A stretch of DNA of 64,000 nucleotides, from positions 14,775-78,774 of the forward strand of contig JBEKRC010000001.1 in NCBI GenBank assembly GCA_049997875.1, read 5' to 3'. Origin of the DNA: Minisyncoccia bacterium (GTDB lineage: Bacteria; Patescibacteriota; Minisyncoccia; UBA6257; 2-01-FULL-56-20). Of this stretch, positions 620 to 52,429 are shown in pieces. Position numbers and translations under genes: made by a program. Within the stretch, counting starts at the first letter, position 1, and each line of letters opens with the position of its first letter. The notes under the pieces were generated by a model. That model worked only from the letters and a program-made list of their open reading frames with translations. It searched no databases and was not told the origin of the DNA.

Positions 620-702
620 AGGATACGGAAAGATAACTTCCTTGTGCAGATTTTACGATACTAAACCAGATCGGTGACTTTTCGAAAGTAATAGCTTATA
701 TT

Positions 703-1527
703 TCACAACGCAACCCTCTTCAATTTTGCGGCTTTCCCAAACCACCTGTGGGACAACCGCACATACGCCGGCGTGATGTCCGTAACAAGGAATTCCCTTT
801 TGCGCTTCCTGCTCAACTGCGAATTTATCTCCGGGTGTCGCTTTAAATAATCTTTTAACTTGTGAGGGATGATCTCGTCCTGCGAAATGACGGCAACGCC
901 TGAGATTTTTCTAATCATTGTTTTGAGTGCTGGATAATGGGTGCACCCGAGGATTATTTTTTCTACTTTTTTCTTGGCAAGCGGCGCGAGATACGCCCGC
1001 ACGATGGGCTCTGCCCAGCGCAGTCCGTCATTCTCAATTAGGGGAACGAGTAGTGGCGCGGCACTTTGGAAAACTTTCACGTGCGGGTTCAGCTTGTGCG
1101 TCTCGCGTACATATGTCCCCGACCGGACCGTGCCGTTGGTGGCGAGCACGCCGAGCCGCTTTATCTCTGGGGCATGCCTGATATTGCCCTTACCGCCAAC
1201 CGCGAGCGCTTCTTCTACGGTCGGGATTATCACGCCGAGGACTCGCCGCTTTGGATAATGATGGGGGAGATGTTGCCGCTGAATCTTCCGGAGCGCCTCC
1301 GCGGAAGCCGTGTTGCACGCAACGACAATAAGCCCGCAATTTTTTTCGCGGAAAAGATATCCCACTGCCTCTTTTAAAAATTGATGTACCGTCTCCGGCG
1401 AACGATTGCCATACGGCACCCGTTGCGTGTCGCCGAGATAGACGTAATCATATCGCGGAAGCTCGCGCGCCAAAGCCCGCATGATGAACAATCCGCCGAG
1501 GCCCGAGTCAAATACCCCGATCTTCAT
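703..1527 (-). CDS. murI: glutamate racemase
   Basis: The 274-aa product has GVFDSGLGG and ACNTAS motifs. It overlaps the serS stop by 4 nt. Confidence 0.9.
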   Translation of the reverse strand: MKIGVFDSGLGGLFIMRALARELPRYDYVYLGDTQRVPYGNRSPETVHQFLKEAVGYLFREKNCGLIVVACNTASAEALRKIQRQHLPHHYPKRRVLGVIIPTVEEALAVGGKGNIRHAPEIKRLGVLATNGTVRSGTYVRETHKLNPHVKVFQSAAPLLVPLIENDGLRWAEPIVRAYLAPLAKKKVEKIILGCTHYPALKTMIRKISGVAVISQDEIIPHKLKDYLKRHPEINSQLSRKRKREFLVTDITPAYVRLSHRWFGKAAKLKRVAL

Positions 1528-2798
1528 CCAATCACGTTCTTACCAACATACTTCTGTAACACCTTCGGCACTTCAATCTTCCCATCCTTCGTCTGGTAGT
1601 TTTCCAAAATCGCCATGAAGATCCGCGGGCTCGGGAGCGCAGTGTTATTCAGTAGATACACAAACTTTTTATTTCCCGCAGCATCAACATACTTCACATT
1701 CAGCCGACGCGCCTGCCAGTCCAAAAAGTCGCTCGCAGAACCGGTTTCCGCCCAGCGCTTCCCCACTGGAAGCCATGCTTCCAGATCAAATGCGCGATAC
1801 TTCCCCGGACTCATGTCGCCCGAACAGAGCTGTATGCGCCGATAGGGCAGCCCAAGCTCCTCGTGCATCTCACCGGAAATCGCCGTCATCTCATCCTGTA
1901 GCTTGTTCGCCTTTGAAATATCGGCTTCGGCAACCACCACCTGCTCTACTTTCATAAATTCGTGAACACGGTACATTCCTTTCACATCCTTCCCATAACT
2001 GCCTATCTCGCTCCGGTAGCACTGGCTGTAACCGCATATTTTTATCGGAAGATCTTCCACCTTGAGCGTCTCGTCGGCAAAGTATGCGAGGAGTGACGGT
2101 TCCGCCGTCCCCACAAGAAACTTTTTCTCGTGGCTCAATTCTCCGCTTGCCTCCCTGTCCGAGGTTGCTATCTGGTAAATTTCATCCACCGCGGGGTCAT
2201 ATTCAAATCCCTTGAAATAACCGCTGCCGAAGAGCGCGGAGCCCTTCACGAGCGTTGGCGGGATCATCGGCTTGTATCCCTTCTCCACCATTTTTTGGAG
2301 CGCGTACATCATAATGCCCATCATCAAAAGCGCCCCGTCGCCCTTCACGTAATAGCCGCGAAAGCCCGCGACCTTCGTCCCCCGCTCAAAATCCAGAATG
2401 TTGAGCGCCGTGCCGAGCTCTATGTGGTCTTTCGGCGTGAAATCAAATTCCTTTTGCTTCCCCCAACGATAGATCTCGGGGTTGTCCTCGCCGCTCTTTC
2501 CAACTGGCGTATCGGGAGAAATGATGTTCGGCACGAGCGCCATCAGTTCATTGAACTCCCGCTCTCTTGTTTTCAGTTCCTCTTCTTCACTCTTGAACTG
2601 CTCTTTTAATTTTTTTGCCTCGTCGCGATCCTTGGTCGCCTTTTGCTTCGCGCGCAATCCCTCCGCGGCCTGGATGCGCTCCCGCCGCGCCTTGTCCACG
2701 CGGAGAAGCTCGTCGATCACCTTCGGATCCAAATTCTTTTTCGCCGCAACGTCCTTCAGAAGTTCCGCATTCTCGCGGATAAATTTGATGTCCAACAT
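1524..2798 (-). CDS. serS: seryl-tRNA synthetase
   Basis: The 424-aa product starts MLDIKFIREN, has an N-terminal coiled-coil arm and a class II core. The ORF track extends upstream without a stop; an internal ATG at 2796-2798 was chosen, and 2810 is an alternative start. Confidence 0.9.
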   Translation of the reverse strand: MLDIKFIRENAELLKDVAAKKNLDPKVIDELLRVDKARRERIQAAEGLRAKQKATKDRDEAKKLKEQFKSEEEELKTREREFNELMALVPNIISPDTPVGKSGEDNPEIYRWGKQKEFDFTPKDHIELGTALNILDFERGTKVAGFRGYYVKGDGALLMMGIMMYALQKMVEKGYKPMIPPTLVKGSALFGSGYFKGFEYDPAVDEIYQIATSDREASGELSHEKKFLVGTAEPSLLAYFADETLKVEDLPIKICGYSQCYRSEIGSYGKDVKGMYRVHEFMKVEQVVVAEADISKANKLQDEMTAISGEMHEELGLPYRRIQLCSGDMSPGKYRAFDLEAWLPVGKRWAETGSASDFLDWQARRLNVKYVDAAGNKKFVYLLNNTALPSPRIFMAILENYQTKDGKIEVPKVLQKYVGKNVIG

Positions 2799-2886
2799 AT
2801 TGATTTTCATTCTATACCATTGAACGCGAAAGGTGAAGCGTGGTATGCTTTTTATGGATAGCAATTTGTCACAAAGGAGGGCGGGA

Positions 2887-3138
2887 ATGAAACGAGCCGC
2901 GTTCACGGTATTATTGTTGCTATTTGTTCTATTCTCCTTTCTACCGCTGTTTGCAAGCGCGAATGGCGGAATAATGGTGAATGGACAAACCGTTGTGATC
3001 GCAAAAGAAGGGCTGCCGCCGATGGTCCAGAAAAAAGTCCCCAACCAAAAGAAGTTGAAAAGGATGGGGAGGCGGCTCATAAACCATGGAAAAGTACATG
3101 TCGGGAGAATAGGACACAAAGACAACCTTCTGCATTGA
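2887..3138 (+). CDS. small secreted/membrane protein (83 aa), hypothetical
   Basis: An ATG lies 6 nt after an AAGGAGG Shine-Dalgarno site. The N-terminus is hydrophobic and signal-like (AAFTVLLLLFVLFSFLPLFASA). Confidence 0.4.
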   Translation: MKRAAFTVLLLLFVLFSFLPLFASANGGIMVNGQTVVIAKEGLPPMVQKKVPNQKKLKRMGRRLINHGKVHVGRIGHKDNLLH

Positions 3139-3221
3139 TCGGCAATCCTTGCAAGCACCTCCGCGGAGCGTTCACGGCCAGCGCCGGCGCCTCCGCGGAG
3201 GATTTTTATTTCAATGAAATC

Positions 3222-3250
3222 TTGAAAATGCGTGACTTTCGGCTTACAAT
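3222..3250 (+). promoter_or_regulatory. sigma70-like promoter (TTGAAA-17-TACAAT) upstream of thrS
   Basis: The -35 TTGAAA is at 3222-3227, a 17-nt spacer follows, and the -10 TACAAT is at 3245-3250. The predicted TSS lies 1-2 nt before the thrS ATG, suggesting a leaderless mRNA. Confidence 0.35.
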
Positions 3251-3258
3251 ATGTATAT

Positions 3259-5010
3259 ATGGGTAAATCCGAATCTGTTCCGCTTGACGCCATCCGCCAC
3301 TCGCTCGCGCACTTGCTCGCGGCGGCGGTTTTGAAAGAATTCCCGGAGGCGAAACTCGGCATCGGCCCCACGATCGAGAACGGCTTTTATTATGACTTTC
3401 TCCTTCCACGGACGCTCATACCGGACGACTTGAAGACACTTGAAAAAGCAATGCGCGAGCTCGCGAAAAAGAACCTGCCGTTTGCGGGCGAGGAAATTTC
3501 TGCTGCCGAAGCAAAGAAATTATTTGCAAAACAACCATTTAAACTGGAGCTTATCAAGGAACTCGCGGATGCCCATGAGAAGATCGGTATCTACCGCACG
3601 GGCGAGGTTTTTCTGGATCTCTGCCGCGGTGGCCACGTCACGAACACGAAGGAAATCCCGCTTGATGGATTCAAGCTGGACAAAATTGCGGGCGCTTACT
3701 GGCGCGGCGACGAGAAAAATCCGATGCTCCAGCGTATCTACGGCCTCGCGTTCGGAAGCAAAAAAGAATTGGACGACTTTTTGAAGCTCCGCGAGGAAGC
3801 CGAGAAGCGCGACCACAAAAAGCTCGGTGAGCGGCTGGATCTTTTTACGTTTTCTGACCTCGTGGGGCCGGGACTTCCTCTTTGGACCCCGAAGGGCACG
3901 CTCCTCCGCAATCTCTTGGACGACTTTGTTTGGGAACTCCGTAAAAAGCGCGGCTATGTGCAGGTGGACATTCCCCACCTCGCGAAAAAAGAACTTTATG
4001 AAACAAGCGGCCACTGGGAAAAATTCAAAGACGATCTTTTCAAGATAACGACGCGCGAGGGGCACCTCTTCGCGATGAAGCCGATGAACTGCCCGCATCA
4101 CGCACAGATCTACGCGCGGCGGCAATGGAGCTACCGTGAACTCCCCCAGCGGTATGCCACGACGACCAAAGTGTATCGCGACGAGCAGTCGGGAGAACTC
4201 GCGGGAATCACGCGCGTGCTCGCAATCACGCAAGACGATGCGCACGTGTTCTGCCGCGAGTCGCAGGCCAAAGAGGAATTCGGGAAAATCTGGGATATTG
4301 TGCACGAGTTCTACGGCGTGTTCGGTTTTTCGCTTCGCGTGCGGCTCTCGCTCCACGATCCCATGCATCCCGAAAAATACCTTGGCGACGCGAAGCATTG
4401 GAAACGGGCGGAAACCATGCTCCGCGAGATCGCTGCGGAGAAAAAAGCGGCCGCGTTCGAGGGCGCTGGCGAGGCGGCGTTCTACGGCCCGAAACTGGAC
4501 TTCATGGCAAAGGACGCGCTCGGCCGTGAACACCAAGTGGCGACCATCCAACTAGATATGAACATGCCGGAGCGTTTTGACCTTTTCTGCGTAAACGAGA
4601 AAGGCGAACGCGAGCGGATCGTAATGATCCACGCCGCCATCATGGGCTCCATTGAACGGTTCCTCGGCGTGCTTATCGAACATTTTGCCGGCGCATTTCC
4701 GGTCTGGCTCGCGCCCGTGCAGGCAACCGTACTCCCCATAAGCGAAAAATTTTCGGGATATGCGCACGAGGTTTATGAAAAACTTACGACTGCCGGCGTC
4801 CGCGCCGAACTTTCCGAAGCGAACGAATCGCTCAGCAAGCGCATCCGCGAGGCCGAACTCATGAAGATTCCCTACGTGCTCGTGGTTGGCGAGAAAGAAC
4901 AAAAAAACGGCACGGTGGCCGCACGGACAAGAAAAGGAGACGAGGGCTCGCAGAATTTGGATGATTTTCTGAAGAATATCAGAGAAAATATTGAGAGAAA
5001 AAAGCTGTAA
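3259..5010 (+). CDS. thrS: threonyl-tRNA synthetase lacking the N-terminal TGS domain
   Basis: The product starts at an HSLAHLL-type N2 region, followed by a class II core and anticodon-binding domain. The ATG at 3259 is preferred over the upstream GTG at 3232. Confidence 0.9.
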   Translation: MGKSESVPLDAIRHSLAHLLAAAVLKEFPEAKLGIGPTIENGFYYDFLLPRTLIPDDLKTLEKAMRELAKKNLPFAGEEISAAEAKKLFAKQPFKLELIKELADAHEKIGIYRTGEVFLDLCRGGHVTNTKEIPLDGFKLDKIAGAYWRGDEKNPMLQRIYGLAFGSKKELDDFLKLREEAEKRDHKKLGERLDLFTFSDLVGPGLPLWTPKGTLLRNLLDDFVWELRKKRGYVQVDIPHLAKKELYETSGHWEKFKDDLFKITTREGHLFAMKPMNCPHHAQIYARRQWSYRELPQRYATTTKVYRDEQSGELAGITRVLAITQDDAHVFCRESQAKEEFGKIWDIVHEFYGVFGFSLRVRLSLHDPMHPEKYLGDAKHWKRAETMLREIAAEKKAAAFEGAGEAAFYGPKLDFMAKDALGREHQVATIQLDMNMPERFDLFCVNEKGERERIVMIHAAIMGSIERFLGVLIEHFAGAFPVWLAPVQATVLPISEKFSGYAHEVYEKLTTAGVRAELSEANESLSKRIREAELMKIPYVLVVGEKEQKNGTVAARTRKGDEGSQNLDDFLKNIRENIERKKL

Positions 5011-7538: not shown

Positions 7539-8222
7539 TCAACCCAAAACTTTTTGGACGACTTGCCACACAAGGGCATGGATCTCGTCCGGTGAAAGAA
7601 GGACGCCTCCCGGCGCGCATTCAATCACTTCAAATTCCGCGGGAAAAAGCGCGGCGATTTCCAGGTATACTTCCTCCGCACGCTTCTGGTACGCGAAGTC
7701 CGCCTCGTGGAGGTCGCGTGCTTCGTTCCCACCTCCTCGGTGCTCCCGCACATGACTTTTTCCCGCAAGCTTGTAGGAAATTTCCGCGGGCACATGGAGC
7801 ACGATAGTCATGTCCGGCTTTGGAACGCCGAAGGTTCCAAATTCCAGCTCATGGAGCCAACGGTAAAATTTTTCGCGCTCTCCCCTGTGAGCAATCTTTG
7901 CTCCTTGATACGCCATGTTGGATGCGACGTAGCGGTTCGCGAGAATGATCCTTTCCTCTCCCAACCACTGAAGGATTTTCAATTTGACGTCAAAGCGATC
8001 CACGGCGAAAAGGATAGACGCCGCATGCGGTCCGAGCTCACCGCCGTATTTCCCGGTGAGATATTTCTCCACGAAATAGGAAGACGGCTCGCCGTACTGC
8101 GGGAAGTCCAGCGTCCCCAGCTTCGTGCCTTCTGGCAACGCGAGCACCAGCCGCTCAAACTGCACGGTCTTCCCCGAGCCGTCCGTTCCCTCTATCACGA
8201 TGAATTTGCCCCTTGCCGCCAT
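7539..8222 (-). CDS. tmk: thymidylate kinase
   Basis: FIVIEGTDGSGKT P-loop. Confidence 0.9.
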   Translation of the reverse strand: MAARGKFIVIEGTDGSGKTVQFERLVLALPEGTKLGTLDFPQYGEPSSYFVEKYLTGKYGGELGPHAASILFAVDRFDVKLKILQWLGEERIILANRYVASNMAYQGAKIAHRGEREKFYRWLHELEFGTFGVPKPDMTIVLHVPAEISYKLAGKSHVREHRGGGNEARDLHEADFAYQKRAEEVYLEIAALFPAEFEVIECAPGGVLLSPDEIHALVWQVVQKVLG

Positions 8223-8298
8223 GGCGATTCACCTCATTATATACCTTTTCGCCCTGAAAACATTTCTCCAGGCCCCGCCGCTCACAATAGCAATGCAG

Positions 8299-8724
8299 TC
8301 ACTCTACCACCTCAATTCCCATGTTCCGCGCGGTGCCGCGGATAATTTTTTCCGCCGCGTCCAAGTTGTCGGTGTTCAAGTCCGGCAGCTTCTTTTCTGC
8401 AATCTTCCGCACGTCTGCTTTTGTCACCTTTCCCACTTTCGTCGTAAGCGGATTCCCGGAACCCTTTTCAATGCCGGCAGCTTTTTTCAAGAGCGCTGCG
8501 GCCGGCGGGGTTTTTAAAATAAACTTGAAGCTGCGGTCTTCATAAATGGTAATAAGCGCCGGCACGACATCTCCCTTCATGTCCTTGGTCGCGTCGTTGA
8601 ACTGCTTGCAGAATTCTTGCAGATTGATGCCCTGCGGGCCCAACACCGTGCCCACCGGAGGCGCCGGATTCGCCGCTCCCGCCGGAAGCTGCAGCTTCAA
8701 AGTTGTTTTGATCTTCTTGGCCAT
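8299..8724 (-). CDS. rplK: 50S ribosomal protein L11
   Basis: [16 protein letters not shown]...[13 protein letters not shown]. The start is placed at the internal ATG at 8722-8724. Confidence 0.9.
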
Positions 8725-8769
8725 GTGAGAAATAGAATACAAAACTATCCCATAAAAATCAAATGTGGT

Positions 8770-9548
<779 letters not shown>

Positions 9549-9666: not shown

Positions 9667-10110
9667 TCACCCCAAGATTTCTTCTATCTTCTTCTCCAGC
9701 GCTTCGTTAGAAAGCGGGCGGGGCGCCGCCGAAGGCCGAGGTTCAGAAAGTGCTCTCCCGCGTTTTGGCGCGCGGAACGGGAACGAAGGCATGGCGGTGG
9801 GTTCCCGCTGTACGGCGACGGGAGATGCCACGGTAATCATTGAACGAATCACGTCTGGCTGCGTGCGGAGGTCATGTTCAAGGTTTTTTGCGTCTTCCCC
9901 CAACGCCGCAAATACACAGGAAACAAAGACTGCCTCCATGTTTCCTTTAATCTTGTATGCAAGCGCTATTTTTTTTGCGCGCGGTTCCGCGACTACCTCG
10001 CCGTTATGCTGACGGACAAGCTCCATCATGCGCGCAGCGTCGTCCTCGCTTTTGAGGAGAAGCGCAAGCTCATAGGTCTTTGTATCCGTTTCCATTTCTG
10101 CGTCGTCCAT
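9667..10110 (-). CDS. rpsF: 30S ribosomal protein S6
   Basis: YELALLL...LAYKI...VIRSMI S6 pattern. It lies upstream of ssb, as in the canonical rpsF-ssb order. The start could also be the Met at 10095. Confidence 0.75.
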   Translation of the reverse strand: MDDAEMETDTKTYELALLLKSEDDAARMMELVRQHNGEVVAEPRAKKIALAYKIKGNMEAVFVSCVFAALGEDAKNLEHDLRTQPDVIRSMITVASPVAVQREPTAMPSFPFRAPKRGRALSEPRPSAAPRPLSNEALEKKIEEILG

Positions 10111-10149
10111 GGCGTGGTCAGTATAATGGAAGCGCTGTGGTCTGTCCAG

Positions 10150-16881
<6,732 letters not shown>

Positions 16882-16928
16882 TACACACAAAAACGGTGCC
16901 ACTCTTTATTCCAAGAGGTCCCGTTGGC

Positions 16929-26725: not shown

Positions 26726-27121
26726 CTACCCCCTCCGCCGCCTCCGGTGAAGCTGTTTTGATTTTTGCGTGATGGCAAAAACGGAAAGCACCATGATGTA
26801 ATCCGCAACGACCTCGGAATCAAGGACGTAGCCCCTGCCGCCGAAGAAAAGGGCGACAATGGCAAGCACAAAAATGAGCACGGTCCATGCAATGATAAAA
26901 AGTTCGCCAGGGTGGCGGCTGTCGTGGATGTCATACCAACGGTCAAACTCCTTCGTGCCCGCGTAGAGGGTAAGGACGCCGGCGTACACCGCGCTCAAAG
27001 GAAGAATAAACGGCTCGTACCGGTTGAATAAGAAAAAGTTCGCGACCACGAAGACCATAAAAACGACGGTCCATGACGTGCAAAGGGTGCTCCATAGCTG
27101 CTCGCCGCTGAAAGCTTTCAT
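26726..27121 (-). CDS. small polytopic membrane protein, hypothetical
   Basis: The 131-aa product has three or four predicted TM helices. Confidence 0.45.
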   Translation of the reverse strand: MKAFSGEQLWSTLCTSWTVVFMVFVVANFFLFNRYEPFILPLSAVYAGVLTLYAGTKEFDRWYDIHDSRHPGELFIIAWTVLIFVLAIVALFFGGRGYVLDSEVVADYIMVLSVFAITQKSKQLHRRRRRG

Positions 27122-28578
27122 TACTTCACAAAATACTTCTTTTTTATCTCTTCTTCCAGTCCTTCCTCAAATTCGTCTTTTGTAGTGCGGGCTTTTTCGG
27201 CAAGCTTTTTCAACGCCGCGTCGGAGAGTTTCCCCAACTCCGTGACGCGCACTGTCAAGTTTTCTTTAACATTCTTTTTAGGATCATCCAGCACCTCTTC
27301 AAGCAATATGGCAAGCACCCACCCCACGCGCTGTCCGGGCGGGATTTTTAAAATTTCCATCACATCGTCGCCGTTCACTTTGAGCATCTTCGGCGAGACC
27401 GGATCGTTCTTCACTTTCTCAATCATGAACATCAGGTGGCGGTTCTTATATGGCGTTGCTTTCGGCGCACCGGAGCCGATACGGTCTGCCTCGCGCACTT
27501 TGAAAAGATCCGGCACGGTTTCCGGTCCCACGCGCGCGAGGAACCGCCGCACGCCGCGCTCGGAGACCTCGCCCACGTTGTAATAGAACATATGGTAGCG
27601 CACGAGATGGGTCACTTGTTCTATGAATTCCTTTGAGAACCGCAAGCGATCCAGTGCTTTTGTTGTCATCTTCGCACTGATGAATTCGTGCTGATAGAAC
27701 GTGGAGTTGCGGCCCTCGCCCTGTTTCGCACGCGGCTTCCCGACATCATGCAAGAGCGCCGCCATGCGGATCACGAGCGGATAATCCTGCTTCGCAGCAT
27801 AGTCCAGCGACCGAACGCTGTGCTCAAACACGGTATAAATATGATGGAGATTCTGCCCGACGCCCAGTCCCTCGCGCAGTTCCGGCAAAACGTACTGCAG
27901 CAAACCAAGTTCTTCCAAAAGAATCATCCCCTTCGCCGCCTGCGGTGTCTCCAATATCTTTACAAGCTCGTCACGGACGCGCTCTTTTGCGATCATTTCA
28001 AGCTCGTGCGAAAGCTTTTCTATCGCGCGGCGCGTGTCCATTTCAATCTCAAAATCCAATTCCACCGCAAACCGCACCGCCCGCATAAGGCGCAATGCGT
28101 CTTCGCTGAACCGTTCCGCGGGACTCCCCACGGTGCGAATCACCTTTTTCTCCAAATCACCCTTACCCCCAAACGGATCATACACTTCCCCTTTCAGGTT
28201 CATCGCGAGCGCGTTCACCGTAAAATCCCGGCGGGACAAATCTTCCTGAATCGTTTTGGCGAATTTCACTTCGTCCGGATGCCGCTTATCCGTATACCTC
28301 CCTTCAATCCGGTACGTGGTCACTTCAATCACTTTCAGCTTCGGATCCTCCGATTCGGTTTTCACTCCCACCGTGCCGAACGCATTTTCATACACGCTCT
28401 CCGGAAAAAATTTCTGGATATCCTCTGGCAACGCGCTCGTCGCAATGTCCCAATCTTTTGGCTCCCGGCCCAAAAGCATGTCCCGCACGCAACCGCCCAC
28501 CAAATACGCTTCAAATCCCGCCTTTGCGAGCGCCAAGGCGACTTCGGAAACTTCCTTTGGTACGAGAAGTTTTGCCAT
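27121..28578 (-). CDS. cca: CCA-adding enzyme (tRNA nucleotidyltransferase with HD domain)
   Basis: GGCVRD nucleotidyltransferase motif, LLHDVGKP HD motif, and a strong SD site (GTTAAGGAG) before the ATG at 28578. Confidence 0.85.
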   Translation of the reverse strand: MAKLLVPKEVSEVALALAKAGFEAYLVGGCVRDMLLGREPKDWDIATSALPEDIQKFFPESVYENAFGTVGVKTESEDPKLKVIEVTTYRIEGRYTDKRHPDEVKFAKTIQEDLSRRDFTVNALAMNLKGEVYDPFGGKGDLEKKVIRTVGSPAERFSEDALRLMRAVRFAVELDFEIEMDTRRAIEKLSHELEMIAKERVRDELVKILETPQAAKGMILLEELGLLQYVLPELREGLGVGQNLHHIYTVFEHSVRSLDYAAKQDYPLVIRMAALLHDVGKPRAKQGEGRNSTFYQHEFISAKMTTKALDRLRFSKEFIEQVTHLVRYHMFYYNVGEVSERGVRRFLARVGPETVPDLFKVREADRIGSGAPKATPYKNRHLMFMIEKVKNDPVSPKMLKVNGDDVMEILKIPPGQRVGWVLAILLEEVLDDPKKNVKENLTVRVTELGKLSDAALKKLAEKARTTKDEFEEGLEEEIKKKYFVK

Positions 28579-28600: not shown

Positions 28601-29737
28601 CTACCGCACCGTTCCGCCGAACTCCCCGGCAGTCTTTTTTTCAAGCGCGTGATGCATCACGTCCACCTCTGCGTTTGTAAGCGTCCGCTCGTTGCTCCGA
28701 TAGACCACGCGGAAGGTGTAGCTTGTTTTCCCCGCGCCGAACTTTTCCGGATTTTCATACTTATCAAGCAATGCAACCTCCTCCACAAGGTCGCCGCCGA
28801 TATCGCGGATCACGTCAAAATAATTGTTCGGCACAAAGTCCGCACCGACGACAAAAGAGATGTCGCGAGTGACAGGCGGGTACTTGCTTACTTCTTTATA
28901 AGCATTGCCTAAGCGGAGCTGGCGCGTCACGCGCGAATCCGCAGACCACAAAAGCCGGATGTCGGGAAGCTGCATGCTCAAGATTGCGAGCCGCTCCAGG
29001 CCAAAGCCGAACGCCCAACCGTTCCAGATGCGCGAATCAATACCGAAGTTATCCAAAACTTTTGATTGCACGACGCCGCTTCCCAAGACCTCCACCCAGC
29101 GCCCGCCTACTTCTATCACCATCTCCAAGCTCGGGTCCGTGTACGGGAACGTATCTTTATTGAAACGATACTTGATGCCCGGCCCGTAAATCGCCTGCGC
29201 GATTGTTACCAAAACGGCTTTCAGATCTTCCAAGCCGATTTCTTTTTCCTCCCGGCGGCAAAGATACCAACCATCCATCTGGTGGAATACGTTCATGTGC
29301 TCGCGGTCTATTTCATCCTTGCGGTACACCTTGCCATAGCACAGCGCGCCAACCGCTTTCCCCTGCCGTATTTTTTCTTTCACCGCAGAAAGGCCGAGCC
29401 AGTAGTACCACATGATCGTGGTGTGCGTGCGCAAAATGTAGTCGTCGTTCACGTAGTACGTATCGGAGCGGCTGCGGGCGGGATGGTCGGGCGGGAAATT
29501 AAAAAGGTCAAAACTCTCCCGCGCCGGCACGATCTCCGGCACCTGCACAACGTCAAACGCCTTGAAATCCGGGAGCGCCACGATGCGCCGCACAATCTCA
29601 TAAATCGGGCTCCCCTTCGTACGCGAAAGGTCCGGCATCCGCATGAACCGCAGCATGCGCGCCGCTTCCGCGTCGCTCCGTTTTTCTATCTCCGCGCGGA
29701 GCCGCTTTTCCTCCGGTGCCGCGATAACAAGTTCCAT
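28601..29737 (-). CDS. phenylalanyl-tRNA synthetase, monomeric mitochondrial-type (PheS-like catalytic core plus C-terminal FDX-ACB anticodon-binding domain)
   Basis: FNFPPDHPARSRSDTYY (motif 2), GWAFGFGLERLAIL (motif 3), then SKYPPVTRDISFVV...FDVIRDIGGDLVEEVALLDKY...KTSYTFRVVYRSNERTLTNAEV, which is collinear with the human FARS2 C-terminus. There is no bacterial N-terminal coiled coil. Confidence 0.8.
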   Translation of the reverse strand: MELVIAAPEEKRLRAEIEKRSDAEAARMLRFMRMPDLSRTKGSPIYEIVRRIVALPDFKAFDVVQVPEIVPARESFDLFNFPPDHPARSRSDTYYVNDDYILRTHTTIMWYYWLGLSAVKEKIRQGKAVGALCYGKVYRKDEIDREHMNVFHQMDGWYLCRREEKEIGLEDLKAVLVTIAQAIYGPGIKYRFNKDTFPYTDPSLEMVIEVGGRWVEVLGSGVVQSKVLDNFGIDSRIWNGWAFGFGLERLAILSMQLPDIRLLWSADSRVTRQLRLGNAYKEVSKYPPVTRDISFVVGADFVPNNYFDVIRDIGGDLVEEVALLDKYENPEKFGAGKTSYTFRVVYRSNERTLTNAEVDVMHHALEKKTAGEFGGTVR

Positions 29738-29842
29738 TCTTCTGATGGTAGCAAGATTGCAAAACCCGTGCAACCAAAACGAATGATAACTTTTTAATCT
29801 GTGCGCGGGCCTGGACGATCTTCGAACGATGCTTCCGCGAGA

Positions 29843-30331
29843 CTATTTCTCAACAAACCGTCCGTCTGCTCGTTTCTGGCACTTATCCCATTCATAAACC
29901 CTGCCGTTCATAGCAATGTAAACACCCTTATTCAAAACATTCAGCGCACCGATCGCTACGCCGATGTTAAATTCCGCGTCTGAATCCTTGAAGCGGAATG
30001 GTTGAGAAGCACCAGTTAGCACGATCGCCTTGTCACGAATATCGCTCAATGCTTTTGCTGTTTCGATCATAGTGTCCGTCCCATGCGTGATCAGAATTTT
30101 ATCGGCGATGGATCCTTCGCAAGCCCTCTTGATAAGCTGCCTATCCTCGTCATTCATGTCTAAGCTATCTTTTGCCAAAAGCCGCTCAATATCATACTCG
30201 AAGTTCAATTTGACCTTCTCCTCGCCCATGACCCGTATCGCTTGCTTCCCAAATGAAAAGTTAAGCGTGCCCTTTTCTTCTGAATAGATCTTATCGATTG
30301 TGCCGCCAGCCGTAAAAACCTTGATTTTCAT
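29843..30331 (-). CDS. asparaginase-family N-terminal domain protein (163 aa, stand-alone)
   Basis: VFTAGGTIDK, ITHGTDTM and VLTGASQP motifs of L-asparaginase/GatD domain 1. The C-terminal domain is absent. Confidence 0.6.
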   Translation of the reverse strand: MKIKVFTAGGTIDKIYSEEKGTLNFSFGKQAIRVMGEEKVKLNFEYDIERLLAKDSLDMNDEDRQLIKRACEGSIADKILITHGTDTMIETAKALSDIRDKAIVLTGASQPFRFKDSDAEFNIGVAIGALNVLNKGVYIAMNGRVYEWDKCQKRADGRFVEK

Positions 30332-30389
30332 AGTTTTGATTCTAACTGAATTTAAAGATGAACTCAAATGTATCTATTCTAGATTTTTG

Positions 30390-30462
30390 TGCCGGCGGCA
30401 GGATTCGAACCTGCGACCTCGGCCTTATGAAAGCCTCGCTCTGCCACTGAGCTACGCCGGCT
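30390..30462 (-). tRNA. tRNA-Met/Ile2 (CAU)
   Basis: GCCGGCGUAGCUCAGUGGCAGAGC...GGCUUUCAUAAGGCC...GCAGGUUCGAAUCCUGC...CGCCGGCA. G1-C72 is paired, so it is not an initiator. Confidence 0.8.
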
Positions 30463-48874: not shown

Positions 48875-51800
48875 CTACGAGTTCTGTTGGAACTGGACGT
48901 TGAAGACCTGGAGCGGAGTGGTGATTGCCGGCGTCAGAGTGACACCAGTCACAGTCGTGCTGTTGGAATTCGTGCCATCCGTGTACTGGATAGACGTTGC
49001 AGCACTGACCGTACCGGCCAGACTGACGGAGTTGTTGCTTCCCGCCACTACCGTGTTGTCCTGGTCGTCAGCATACAACTGGAAGGTAACCGGGCTGCCA
49101 TTGACCTGGAAGCCGTTGATGCCGACACCGAAACTCCACGTTATCGTGCAGCTCTGGCTGGCACAACTCGTTGTCGCGGGCGTGTACTTCGTCCCGTTCA
49201 GGTAGAGGTACGTGCTCGTCGCAAACGCGGTCGCAACGGCGCTCGTCGCCGAGATCGCCGATCCCGAGAGGGTGATCGTCGTCGTATTGACGGCGACTGA
49301 CCCGCTGTTAATCGGCGTAAATGTTACCGTCGCAAGCTGGTCAGACGTGCTCTTCGGACGGCTGCTAACGCTGCCGTTAACCGCGCCCGAGAAGCTCAAG
49401 ACGTTCTGCAAGACCGTTTGCTGCGTGCCCGCCGCGCTGGAGAGCGTGACGCCCGTAGAAATGTTGGACGTATTGCCCAACGCAACGACCGTAGCAATCG
49501 CAGTCGCTTGAGCCGTCGAAGTCGCGACTTCAAACGTGTGGATTGCGCCATCCGTAACATTTCCCGCTGAGTACGAATTCACGCCGCCCTTAAGGGTAAG
49601 CGCGAGCGTACCATTCTGCGGGATGACGAACGGACTGGGAGTGCCGCCAAACGAGAAGTGGTAGAGGAAGGCATTCTGGCCACTAACCACAGTTGCGCCG
49701 ACATACGTAGCCGCGTTGCCGACCTGTGTTGAACCGTTCCACAGGGTCAGGGTACCGAACGACGGCAAGACGTTCGCCGTGTTCGTCGCCACGCCCAAGG
49801 TAGACGTCGTCAAGGCATCAGCCACATATAAGTCGGTCACTCTCACAGGCTCAATGTTCTTCGTTTCCTGGAAGTTGAACGCTGCGAGTGTGTTGTTGTT
49901 CGTACCCATCGAAAGCTGGCTAACCGAAGGATTGTATCCTTGGTTAGTCGAAACCGTGATGGAAGTCCCGCTGGTTGCAACTGTCAAGGACTGCCCCCTC
50001 GTAATACCGCTGCACGAAAGAGCGCTGTATGAAACAACACTCGTCCCGGAACAGCCGGTAAGAGAAGAGGCGGGAGACTGGCTAGATGCTCCAGAAAGGA
50101 TATCGGCATAGACATCCACGTTCGTTGTCTGTCCTGCGGCAATCGTGAATGGCGAGCCGGAGAACGTATATGTTCCCGCGTCAGCCACAACGCCCTGCGT
50201 CGTGCCGAACTGCGTGCCGCCAATCATGACCTTCATGTTCTGGATGTCGCCAGAGCCAGTGCTGCTCGGTGCCGGCTTGAGGCTTATCGTATTGATCTGC
50301 ACGCCGCTCGCGGACGAAGCCGTGAACGAGTAGGAGCCGATGTGAACGCCAGTGCTGTTTGGCGTAACGGTCTGATTGCCGTAGGCAGAGTTCGCGGCAA
50401 TCGAGAGCAAGCTGGACTGCAGCGAGAGCGCGCTGCCCGATGCGCCGGACGAAGAACCCGGCTGGCTTGAGGTCAAGCCCTGCAGGTTGCTGGCGGTCTC
50501 GGCCAAGAGGGAAGCCGCTATCGTGAGGAAGCTTGCCGTGGACTGGATGTCGGCCTTCAAGGACAACACCCGGGTTGTGTTCGCCGGAATGATGTAGTTG
50601 ATCGGCGAATTGTTCGTGCCGAAGCAGTCAACGTAGTTACCGCTGGTTGCCTTAAAGGTACCGTCCGTGGCGCTGTTTATGATGGTATTCGTACCAGTGT
50701 CACAAGTGTTGCCCGACGGAGGCGTGTTGATGGTGGTACCCACCTGACCGCCTGCATCGTCAACGAGCGATATGTTCTTGAGCATGTTGCTCAACGCAAG
50801 CACGCCGGAACTCGTCGTCACGCTAGTGAGCGCGATCTGGAAGCCGAGGAATTTCACCTTGACCGGCTCGCCAGCCGCGTAGATGTCAAACTTCGCGAGC
50901 ACGACGCCGGACTGGCCGACCGCAATGTTGCCGGTCGGGGTCGCGGAGTCCTGCGAGACCGTGATCTGGCCCTGCTGGATGCCTACCTGCGTGCCCGCAC
51001 CACCCACCACCGATACCGAGATCGGGACGTTGTACTGCGAGTCAACCGCGTAGACGTCGTAGGAGTTCAAGATCTCGAACGCGAAGTTCTTTGAAGGAGA
51101 ACCCATGACATCCGCAAACACCTGGACGTTGTTGCTCCCGGTGTTTATGCTCGCCGGAGAGGACGAGAGGTCAAAGTAGGCCACCCCGTTCGCGCCGACG
51201 GTCGCCAAGGCGGAACCCACCTGCGCGCCGTTCACATTAAGCTTCACGTTCCGGATGTCGGCGTTGTTTGCCGAACCGATGACCGTGAACTTGATGCCTT
51301 TGAGGTACGTCAGGCTGTTCTGGCCCGTGAATGTCCAGGCGCCGACGATGTTATTCTGCGTACCCGCCGTAACCTGCGTCGCGATGGACGAAGACGCCGT
51401 CGTCAACGACGCAAGGGACGGGTTGCTGACCGTCGTTACTGTGAAGATGCTGCCGGTGAGCGGGAACGCGCCGGACGGCGTGATCGCGTTGTTGGACGCG
51501 TCAACCGCCGTGATGTCCGAGGCCGCGCTTACCGCAAATCCCACCGTGTTGCCGGAGGCAAGATTCGTTGAGGGGTCAATCGCCACCCAGAGGGTCTGCG
51601 TCTGGCCGGCTGAGACCGAAAGGGCCAAGCCGGAGAAGTCAATGACGCCTTTGTTAAGCGACGTGTACTGGTAGAGCACCTGGCCGTTCTGGACCAAGTA
51701 CGCGCCAGCGATAGAGCTGTCCGAAAGGACGCCCGTCTTGTGGACTTTAACGTCCGTTACCGTCACCGCGCCCGAGTTGGACGCCGTAAGGTTAATGGCC

Positions 51801-52429
51801 AAGACCGGAACGCGCGCCGCTGCCGCCGATTGGGAAGAGACGAGCGAACCAGCCGCCGGATTGGACGAACTAAGAGAAACCGCGAGGCCGGTCGCCGGCG
51901 GAGTCACCGTCGTCGTCGTGGTACCCGAAGCACACGACTGACCAGTCGTCGGGCTGTAACCGGACGACGAAGTGCAACCAGCTGGATAGCTAGTCGTCGT
52001 GGTAGTCGTGCCAACGGTCATAGAATTCACGAATGCTCTGGTTATAGGACCAAAGTATCCGGCTGCAGGAGAAATACCGTTCGCCGCCTGGAACTTTCCG
52101 AGGGCTGCCTGGGTTAGAGAACCAAAGTAGCCTGTCGGAGCCGAGACCGCGGTAAGGTATCCCTTGTTAATCAGGAGCTGCTGGAGCGCGGTCACGTCAG
52201 CACCCCTTGAACCAACGGTGAGGTCGCTGGTGAAGGAGTACGAAGATCCCGTGCCCTGCGTGCTTCCCAATTGTGCCTGCAACTGTTGGATCTGCGCGAG
52301 CAAAGCCGTGATCTGAGCCTGAAGGCCAGATGCGGTCTGTGCGTTCGCGAGAGGAAGGGCGGCAATCCCCAGCGCCCACACCACTGTGGTCGCCGTGAGT
52401 GCCACCGAAATCAATTTTTTACTATTCAT
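48875..52429 (-). CDS. large secreted surface protein with two peptidoglycan-binding (PG_binding_1-like) domains and long Ser/Thr-rich beta-repeat regions
   Basis: The 1184-aa product has a signal peptide, a Gln-rich coiled coil, two LQQLLINKGYL...GYFG...AALGKFQAANGI repeats, then low-complexity T/S/G/A/V repeats. Confidence 0.7.
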   Translation of the reverse strand: MNSKKLISVALTATTVVWALGIAALPLANAQTASGLQAQITALLAQIQQLQAQLGSTQGTGSSYSFTSDLTVGSRGADVTALQQLLINKGYLTAVSAPTGYFGSLTQAALGKFQAANGISPAAGYFGPITRAFVNSMTVGTTTTTTSYPAGCTSSSGYSPTTGQSCASGTTTTTVTPPATGLAVSLSSSNPAAGSLVSSQSAAAARVPVLAINLTASNSGAVTVTDVKVHKTGVLSDSSIAGAYLVQNGQVLYQYTSLNKGVIDFSGLALSVSAGQTQTLWVAIDPSTNLASGNTVGFAVSAASDITAVDASNNAITPSGAFPLTGSIFTVTTVSNPSLASLTTASSSIATQVTAGTQNNIVGAWTFTGQNSLTYLKGIKFTVIGSANNADIRNVKLNVNGAQVGSALATVGANGVAYFDLSSSPASINTGSNNVQVFADVMGSPSKNFAFEILNSYDVYAVDSQYNVPISVSVVGGAGTQVGIQQGQITVSQDSATPTGNIAVGQSGVVLAKFDIYAAGEPVKVKFLGFQIALTSVTTSSGVLALSNMLKNISLVDDAGGQVGTTINTPPSGNTCDTGTNTIINSATDGTFKATSGNYVDCFGTNNSPINYIIPANTTRVLSLKADIQSTASFLTIAASLLAETASNLQGLTSSQPGSSSGASGSALSLQSSLLSIAANSAYGNQTVTPNSTGVHIGSYSFTASSASGVQINTISLKPAPSSTGSGDIQNMKVMIGGTQFGTTQGVVADAGTYTFSGSPFTIAAGQTTNVDVYADILSGASSQSPASSLTGCSGTSVVSYSALSCSGITRGQSLTVATSGTSITVSTNQGYNPSVSQLSMGTNNNTLAAFNFQETKNIEPVRVTDLYVADALTTSTLGVATNTANVLPSFGTLTLWNGSTQVGNAATYVGATVVSGQNAFLYHFSFGGTPSPFVIPQNGTLALTLKGGVNSYSAGNVTDGAIHTFEVATSTAQATAIATVVALGNTSNISTGVTLSSAAGTQQTVLQNVLSFSGAVNGSVSSRPKSTSDQLATVTFTPINSGSVAVNTTTITLSGSAISATSAVATAFATSTYLYLNGTKYTPATTSCASQSCTITWSFGVGINGFQVNGSPVTFQLYADDQDNTVVAGSNNSVSLAGTVSAATSIQYTDGTNSNSTTVTGVTLTPAITTPLQVFNVQFQQNS

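Follow-up and report, generated by a model that had tools for sequence, protein, structure and literature searches.

Which enzyme charges tRNA-Phe with phenylalanine in a bacterium of the class Minisyncoccia? The question is raised by a gene on the minus strand, at positions 28601-29737, of a 64,000-nucleotide stretch of the Minisyncoccia contig JBEKRC010000001.1 (the window), which encodes a single-chain homologue of phenylalanyl-tRNA synthetase (PheRS). PheRS is the textbook exception among synthetases, and its single-chain form is taught as a mitochondrial peculiarity. To our knowledge, all bacteria and archaea studied have an (alpha-beta)2 heterotetramer, with the editing site on the beta subunit. 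The original prediction, made from the window, had proposed a mitochondrial-type monomeric PheRS. The evidence presented here indicates that the gene is likely the housekeeping single-polypeptide PheRS of this bacterium, a member of the Paceibacteria-type candidate phyla radiation (CPR). We hold it highly probable that the protein charges tRNA-Phe with phenylalanine and, with less assurance, probable that it is the sole PheRS of these bacteria.

Domain architecture of the 378-aa protein

The analysis of the open reading frames (ORFs) of the window revealed an ATG-started ORF of 378 codons plus stop on the minus strand, as claimed for the PheRS-like gene. An in-frame TTG upstream, at 29773, would give an alternative 390-aa form, but it is the 378-aa start that is used by the JGI gene calls and by the identical NCBI protein. 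The latter (ABSE18_00185 [Minisyncoccia bacterium]) comes from a metagenome-assembled genome (MAG) and is found on 19 contigs of up to 308,631 bp. It is publicly named "hypothetical protein" at NCBI and "PheRS alpha chain" at JGI. The class Minisyncoccia belongs to the phylum Minisyncoccota, formerly Ca. Patescibacteria/CPR (PMC12281837). The reduced, CPR-like host that had been supposed was borne out by this Minisyncoccia MAG and by the occurrence of relatives on complete 0.89-Mb chromosomes.

Two Pfam domains follow one another in the chain, both above their gathering scores. The class II Phe core (PF01409) covers residues 43-273 (E 2.9e-53; 181.3 bits vs. a cutoff of 19.8), and the ferredoxin-fold anticodon-binding domain (FDX-ACB, PF03147) covers residues 284-378 (E 8.7e-22; 77.8 bits vs. 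31.1), the match spanning the whole profile (positions 1-94 of 94). The FDX-ACB domain also matched the last 100 residues of bacterial PheT, both in TIGR00472 (positions 698-798) and in the PDB beta chains 7K9M_B and 2RHS_B. The N-terminal coiled coil of PheS (PF02912) had no Pfam match in the 378-aa protein, which has just 42 residues ahead of the core. The architecture predicted for the gene, with an FDX-ACB domain following a class II core in one chain and no PheS coiled coil, held at the sequence, hidden Markov model (HMM) and fold levels, and both domains were significant in the HMM search proposed as its check.

Among the NCBIfam models, the top match was NF051887, the "PheS-related mystery ligase SrmL", with 251.4 bits and a cutoff of 300. 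The organellar model TIGR00469 (pheS_mito) followed with 246.2 bits (curated cutoff 258.35), and TIGR00468 (pheS), whose coiled coil is also missing here, with 164 bits (cutoff 237.45). By the curated criteria of these sequence models, the PheRS-like protein belongs to none of the three families.

This ranking brings in a first alternative, namely that the protein is a paralogous, SrmL-like PheS-related ligase of other function, encoded beside an ordinary pheS/pheT elsewhere in the genome. Such a ligase might, for instance, be a tRNA-Phe charging enzyme for special conditions, or it might accept another amino acid or aminoacylate an acceptor other than tRNA. The SrmL profile aligned nearly end to end (positions 32-342 of 349), which indicates a shared core-plus-ACB layout, and its advantage over pheS_mito, although marginal, recurred in the other bacterial members of the clade described below. 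On the other hand, the protein falls 49 bits under the SrmL cutoff, which none of 20 representative relatives scanned reached. A literature search on SrmL, of incomplete coverage, retrieved no paper.

Comparison with known PheRS forms and predicted structure

The best match among all PDB sequences was human mitochondrial PheRS (mtPheRS; 5MGU/3CMQ), with an E-value of ~5e-60 and both halves of the protein matched. The HMMER alignment to this enzyme over query residues 170-368 scored 156 bits (E 1e-44) and confirmed, residue by residue, that the tail is collinear with human FARS2. We have then modelled the protein with AlphaFold2 from 64 family sequences (predicted local distance difference test 94.2; predicted template-modelling score 0.90). 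In Foldseek searches, the top matches of the model were 5MGH and 3CMQ, i.e., human mtPheRS in the closed state. The superposition was full length (~390 aligned columns), with template-modelling (TM) scores of 0.79/0.74 for 3CMQ/5MGH, a root-mean-square deviation of 3.0-3.1 A and 31-32% identity. The open, tRNA-bound form 3TUP gave a TM score of 0.57 only, and bacterial PheS chains matched the core of the model alone. The predicted model has, in short, the fold and the closed domain arrangement of the solved human mtPheRS. It further places two helices at residues 8-19 and 23-33, forming a short N-terminal hairpin, and an extra helix pair at 106-113 and 117-124, in an insertion that is described below.

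Class II synthetases are normally oligomeric, and a second alternative is that the protein is a working PheRS that forms a homodimer or relies on a trans partner, a tRNA-binding or editing protein, to replace the functions of PheT. The model shows two elements without a FARS2 counterpart, the insertion helices (aa ~106-124) and the N-terminal hairpin (aa 8-33), which could be interfaces. Moreover, an ORF for an oligonucleotide/oligosaccharide-binding (OB) fold, tRNA-binding protein lies just upstream of the gene in one locus (L061) of our neighbourhood survey, which covered 84 related loci with up to 10 kb on either side of the gene (1.28 Mb in total). However, the full-length model superposes on the closed form of the human enzyme, which is monomeric, and the OB-fold ORF occurred in that single locus only. 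Of the five neighbour genes tested, none was conserved beside the PheRS gene across the family, except for cca in closer relatives; 20 of the 84 loci had it less than 1.5 kb away. We thus regard a non-monomeric or partner-dependent enzyme as improbable, and infer that the single-chain PheRS acts as a monomer.

Organellar PheRS (human FARS2, yeast MSF1; TIGR00469), the "PheRS-M" of AARS Online (PMC11580382), likewise combines a PheS-like core with an FDX-ACB domain resembling PheT B8, and has neither coiled coil nor editing domain. It serves an organelle, whereas the host here is a bacterium. The Minisyncoccia protein is the shorter of the two because it lacks both an organellar presequence and the insertion found between motif 2 and the FPF strand. 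In turn, it has an insertion of ~10 residues after RTHTT, and carries HTT, FHQxD and FPY where the organellar enzymes have HTS, FHQxE and FPF. The bacterial (alpha-beta)2 PheRS is related to it through both subunits: PheS is the homologue of its core, which matches solved PheS chains with E-values of 1e-24 to 1e-36, and the last ~100 residues of PheT are homologous to its ACB domain. In the Minisyncoccia protein, however, the two modules are joined in one 378-aa chain without PF02912 and without domains B1-B7, and so without the B3/B4 editing site.

Active site and clade signatures

Motifs 2 and 3 are both present, as the original prediction had stated, with GKVYRKDEID...FHQMDG as motif 2 and GWAFGFGLERLA as motif 3. 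The former contributes R139, F151, H152, Q153 and D155, and the latter reads G240-W-A242-F-G-F-G-L-E-R249; an FPYT motif lies at 197-200. These active-site motifs align with R195, R301, A294 and T251 of E. coli PheS. Conservation was mapped in 81 species by alignment columns to E. coli PheS (R195, F206-E210, F248-T251, A294 and R301), and the catalytic residues listed in Table 1 were invariant throughout.

Three core positions differ from both PheS and human FARS2 and are almost fixed in the clade, namely T107, D155 and Y199 (Table 1). In the Thermus thermophilus PheRS structures, the corresponding positions touch the amino acid. The changes are a point in favour of an SrmL-like ligase. Conversely, they are conservative at the sequence level, and the alternation of Y199 with phenylalanine within the family argues that the aromatic role has been kept. 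In addition, the equivalents of E. coli T251 and A294 are invariant; these two residues are known determinants of Phe specificity and, by established PheRS genetics, set the size of the Phe pocket. It is chiefly the three clade-fixed changes that call for caution on the fine specificity of the enzyme, which we expect to be for phenylalanine.

The family has further signatures of its own. The insertion that follows RTHTT (TTIMWYYWLGLSAV) is missing from PheS and from organellar PheRS in the alignment, and W110 within it is invariant. Invariant in the family are also D36, L37 and P44.

Phylogenetic placement

We have inferred a neighbour-joining (NJ) tree from the catalytic-core sequences (100 bootstraps) and rooted it on a sparse outgroup, two canonical PheS sequences. 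The Patescibacteria/bacterial sequences formed a clade of their own (100% bootstrap), separate from the eukaryotic/viral clade. The FARS2/PheS placement that had been suggested as a check left the protein outside the organellar clade. The label "mitochondrial-type" consequently has to be divided: it holds for the architecture and fails for the lineage, given the separate bacterial clade and the missed TIGR00469 cutoff. The protein has the known mtPheRS architecture, yet its clade is a bacterial one that spans the class, stands apart and has signature features of its own.

The bacterial group comprised the Patescibacteria family, a small set typified by a protein from a MAG labelled Oligoflexia, and two metagenomic proteins, one of which is read with UGA as a sense codon; its members scored higher with SrmL than with pheS_mito and never reached the SrmL cutoff. 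The second group brought together organellar enzymes of fungi and plants, the 340-370-aa forms and a protein of a giant virus, and every member scanned passed TIGR00469. This included all twelve 337-371-aa forms; the eukaryotic and phage forms scored between 260 and 407 bits. Giant viruses and huge phages also have single-chain PheRS genes, e.g., Yasminevirus P0262 and 340-370-aa forms including P0274. These have the same one-gene core plus FDX-ACB domain, but group with the eukaryotic clade, away from the Patescibacteria one.

Since the best solved relative is a human mitochondrial enzyme, we have also considered a eukaryotic or organellar FARS2 gene that was recently transferred or mis-binned. 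Against this origin, several samples yielded bacterial contigs (the longest 308 kb) in which the identical gene has gatCA, murD, cca and tRNA genes around it, and its Patescibacteria homologues number in the thousands. The bacterial clade, moreover, has its own insertion and stands apart from the eukaryotic/viral sequences. The NJ tree, though simple and sparsely rooted, is enough to reject a recent transfer from a eukaryote, and eukaryotic contamination was rejected on the contig context and the tree together. We assign this origin a negligible likelihood.

The Oligoflexia set nested among Paceibacteria sequences (83% support). One of its members is a 414-aa protein encoded at 10001-11245 of locus L086 (GCA_019694465.1, JAIBBV010000034.1), where the neighbouring genes look non-CPR (M20 peptidase, GCS2, enolase-superfamily genes and FrhB). 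After a few proteins of 394-447 aa, its nearest sequences are from Paceibacteria, at ~50-55% identity. This suggests a transfer out of Patescibacteria or mis-binning.

Another member of the bacterial clade, P0128 (L089 8001-9371 and L090 154-1524), has 13 in-frame TGA codons and a GC content of 32%. Conserved glycines, including some in the GxAFGxGxER motif, align with the TGA codons. This indicates genetic code 25 and a Gracilibacteria/Absconditabacteria-like patescibacterium; the database translation, with W at the TGA sites, is therefore wrong.

On the viral side, the giant virus Yasminevirus carries a single-chain PheRS (P0262). A 348-aa form (P0274) is encoded at 8001-9047 of locus L091 (ENA contig GROS21-1...scaffold_19, 340,874 bp) and belongs to the cluster of P0136, a representative that passes TIGR00469. 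Its neighbours are phage-like (PhageMetallopep, PcfJ, SNF2 helicase and many ORFans), and the contig is probably that of a huge phage with its own mitochondrial-type PheRS.

Distribution and conservation

We have scanned one genome per GTDB species, limited to genomes sharing exact 8-residue words with the query, and found close relatives encoded in at least 296 species representatives. The best 80 of these were 63-93% identical to the window protein, and the named ones among them were all Paceibacteria/Minisyncoccia (Lipton-, Yanofsky-, Zambryski-, Kaiser-, Wildermuth- and Giovannonibacteria). A second search added Wolfe-, Staskawicz-, Nealson- and Portnoybacteria. In a 50%-identity library, the full-length family members made up one cluster (representative P0106), the other near matches being fragments. 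Two complete 0.89-Mb chromosomes, OY970175.1 and OY970382.1, carry the gene, in both cases no more than ~30 kb from one end of the sequence (loci L005, 882,726-898,885, and L006, 17,618-38,748, respectively); it would lie near the origin if these assemblies are rotated to dnaA.

Across the 81 species, 110 of the 378 positions showed at least 98% identity. When compared at the same loci, its identity to the window version was at least on a par with the values for cca and gatA, and exceeded those for thrS and murD by ~18 points. The single-chain PheRS gene is under strong purifying selection, and its conservation pattern fits an indispensable core translation gene, not a dispensable paralogue. 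A class-wide, single-copy gene that evolves as slowly as core translation genes, in genomes of ~0.6-0.9 Mb, speaks against the SrmL-like alternative.

Search for pheS and pheT

The window has a single PheRS-like gene, as had been claimed. When its six-frame ORFs were searched with phmmer, using this protein and E. coli PheS and PheT (from NC_000913) as queries, nothing else resembled PheS or PheT or carried an FDX-ACB domain. Nor was there an ORF with a second PheS core, FDX-ACB, B3_4 or B5 domain in the 84 related loci, each of which had one copy of the gene. In the window and the loci, the E. coli PheT query matched only the protein's own ACB domain and the OB-fold ORF of L061. No pheT was adjacent to the gene, in agreement with what had been noted, and together the window and the loci make up 1.34 Mb without pheS or pheT. 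The context in which pheST usually stands, infC-rpmI-rplT, was also missing, with no L20, L35 or IF3 matches in any locus. The closest canonical PheS representative in our set, P0249, is from a diderm bacterium and has no pheT beside its gene.

Many CPR PheRS-beta lack the B2 domain (PMC5370408), and PheRS alpha and beta have been clustered in one family (PMC6744442). A Gracilibacteria proteome supplement names "pheT" proteins and no "pheS" (PMC11452946), which is uninformative for Paceibacteria. The supplements of the Minisyncoccus, Vampirococcus and patescibacterial epibiont genome papers contained no PheRS entries.

Several of these observations weigh against a housekeeping, sole PheRS. The NCBI pipeline labels the protein "hypothetical", its best NCBIfam match is SrmL (251 bits, below 300), and it misses the pheS_mito cutoff as well (246 vs. 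258). The HTS>HTT, FHQxE>FHQxD and FPF>FPY changes are almost fixed in the clade at presumed amino-acid contacts. A clade member occurs in an Oligoflexia MAG with a non-CPR-looking neighbourhood, where a normal PheST is expected. A randomly placed, single-copy pheST would have given only ~2 sightings in the 1.28 Mb sampled, and the argument from this sampling is weak. Finally, pheT-annotated proteins are listed for Gracilibacteria (PMC11452946), and the clade also has a member in a code-25 patescibacterium.

The paralogue hypothesis is kept alive by the related "mystery" family that NCBI recognises and by the clade member in a non-CPR MAG. Nonetheless, we consider a SrmL-like ligase of other function unlikely, if worth keeping in mind. 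The class-wide presence of the gene, its single copy, its conservation as a core gene, the 0.6-0.9 Mb genomes and the lack of pheS and pheT in 1.34 Mb favour the reading of the single-chain protein as the sole PheRS, which would have replaced the (alpha-beta)2 enzyme.

Gene neighbourhood

The features of the locus and the residues discussed above are collected in Table 1. Other genes identified in the window were serS, thrS, gatB, gatCA, clpB and pilus genes.

Table 1. Features of the PheRS locus (window coordinates) and conserved residues of the encoded protein (residue numbers)
Feature	Position	Strand	Evidence or conservation
CDS, 378 aa + stop, single-chain FARS2-architecture PheRS homologue	28601..29737	(-)	ORF; PF01409 + PF03147; best PDB match human mtPheRS; model
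N-terminal extension, aa 1-42, two short helices, unlike the ~90-aa PheS coiled coil	29612..29737	(-)	no PF02912; model
Class II catalytic core, aa 43-273	28919..29611	(-)	PF01409 2.9e-53; column mapping to E. coli PheS
Clade-specific insertion of ~10 residues after conserved RTHTT, within TTIMWYYWLGLSAVK, aa ~108-120	29378..29416	(-)	alignment
FDX-ACB domain, aa 284-378	28604..28888	(-)	PF03147 8.7e-22
cca, CCA-adding tRNA nucleotidyltransferase, 485 aa, 22 nt downstream, own AGGAG	27121..28578	(-)	Pfam, NCBIfam, gene call, sequence
Asparaginase N-terminal-domain-only ORF, 162 aa, 105 nt upstream	29843..30331	(-)	PF00710, N-terminal domain only
tRNA-Met(CAT), upstream of the PheRS gene	30389..30461	(-)	ARAGORN
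Motif 2 arginine (E. coli PheS R195)	R139		invariant, 81 species
FHQ of motif 2	F151, H152, Q153		invariant, 81 species
First half of FPF motif	F197, P198		invariant, 81 species
Equivalent of E. coli PheS T251	T200		invariant, 81 species
Equivalent of E. coli PheS A294	A242		invariant, 81 species
Motif 3 arginine (E. coli PheS R301)	R249		invariant, 81 species
HTS -> HTT	T107		nearly fixed in clade
FHQxE -> FHQxD	D155		invariant in clade
FPF -> FPY	Y199		Y in 75 species, F in 6

The gene had been assigned to an operon with a stand-alone asparaginase N-domain gene and cca. The same-strand layout with its short gaps stands, and the genes may be co-transcribed; the asparaginase part is species-specific, and the cca link extends to closer relatives only. 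A cca homologue lay downstream on the same strand in ~30 related loci. The asparaginase ORF stood beside the PheRS gene in no loci but L001-L004, all from this one species, and was missing from relatives with 91-93% identity, so that a conserved asparaginase-PheRS operon was rejected and the ORF is taken as an incidental neighbour. A scan for consensus promoters and terminators was compatible with read-through from upstream and is proof of nothing. The asparaginase ORF retains the TGGT and HGTDT active-site motifs and has no C-terminal domain. It is weakly GatD-like (8e-12), and gatCA and gatB are also found in the window.

The commonest conserved context was a tRNA gene just upstream, with tRNA-Met(CAT) within 1.5 kb in 34 of the 84 loci and tRNA-Asp(GTC) in 17. 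No tRNA-Phe gene was present in any of the related loci. In ~14 of them thrS lay within 10 kb (16 matches, counting the window's own thrS, ~24 kb off), in an arrangement unlike that of E. coli.

The OB-fold ORF at 685-1101 (+) of L061 encodes a 139-aa tRNA-binding protein like the B2 domain of E. coli PheT (5e-18) and lies ~600 bp upstream of the PheRS gene. With one occurrence in 84 loci, it was rejected as a conserved helper.

In the window itself, serS, thrS and gatB are clustered. The serS ORF (1524-3371, minus strand, 615 aa) overlaps the start of thrS (3232-5010, plus strand), and its Seryl_tRNA_N domain begins at residue 192; the true serS start is probably ~190 codons downstream of the mechanical ORF start. 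Two very large minus-strand ORFs, of 2250 aa (10150-16902) and 1184 aa (48875-52429, with a peptidoglycan-binding domain near its N-terminus), probably encode giant surface proteins typical of CPR episymbionts.

Proposed mechanism and implications

In the mechanism that we propose, the class II core (aa 43-273) would bind ATP and phenylalanine to form phenylalanyl adenylate (Phe-AMP). The ferredoxin-fold domain (aa 284-378), homologous to PheT B8, would read the GAA anticodon of tRNA-Phe. By analogy with human mtPheRS, the resting enzyme is probably closed, with the ACB domain against the core, and opens by a swing of that domain when tRNA binds. Because there is no B3/B4 domain, tRNA-Phe mischarged with tyrosine or meta-tyrosine (m-Tyr) would go without proofreading in cis.

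A full-text literature search, of incomplete coverage and thus amounting to absence of evidence, did not turn up any account of CPR bacteria with a single-chain PheRS. In its widest form, the proposal would be that the whole class Paceibacteria/Minisyncoccia, and probably some code-25 Patescibacteria, dropped the (alpha-beta)2 PheRS for a single-chain, editing-free enzyme, and that this clade, and no eukaryotic innovation, is the origin of the "mitochondrial" architecture, which then spread to organelles, giant viruses and huge phages. We put this forward tentatively, as a possibility that we find rather doubtful in its full extent.

If the 378-aa enzyme is indeed the sole PheRS, these bacteria would be the first bacterial lineage known without PheT and without cis-editing of Tyr-/m-Tyr-tRNA-Phe, which would bear on the translational accuracy needed by ultra-small symbionts. 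There would also be a practical consequence for genomics. The pheS (TIGR00468) and pheT (TIGR00472) genes are part of standard bacterial marker sets; they would be systematically "missing" from this lineage, with a bias both in the estimation of genome completeness and in marker sets for phylogenomics. Genetic-code engineering, in addition, would find an attractive tool in a bacterial single-chain PheRS that is compact and well-behaved. Finally, the clade gives a concrete way into the question of where mitochondrial PheRS came from: the fusion behind the mitochondrial enzyme may be bacterial in origin, and the long-unclear ancestry of FARS2 would become testable.

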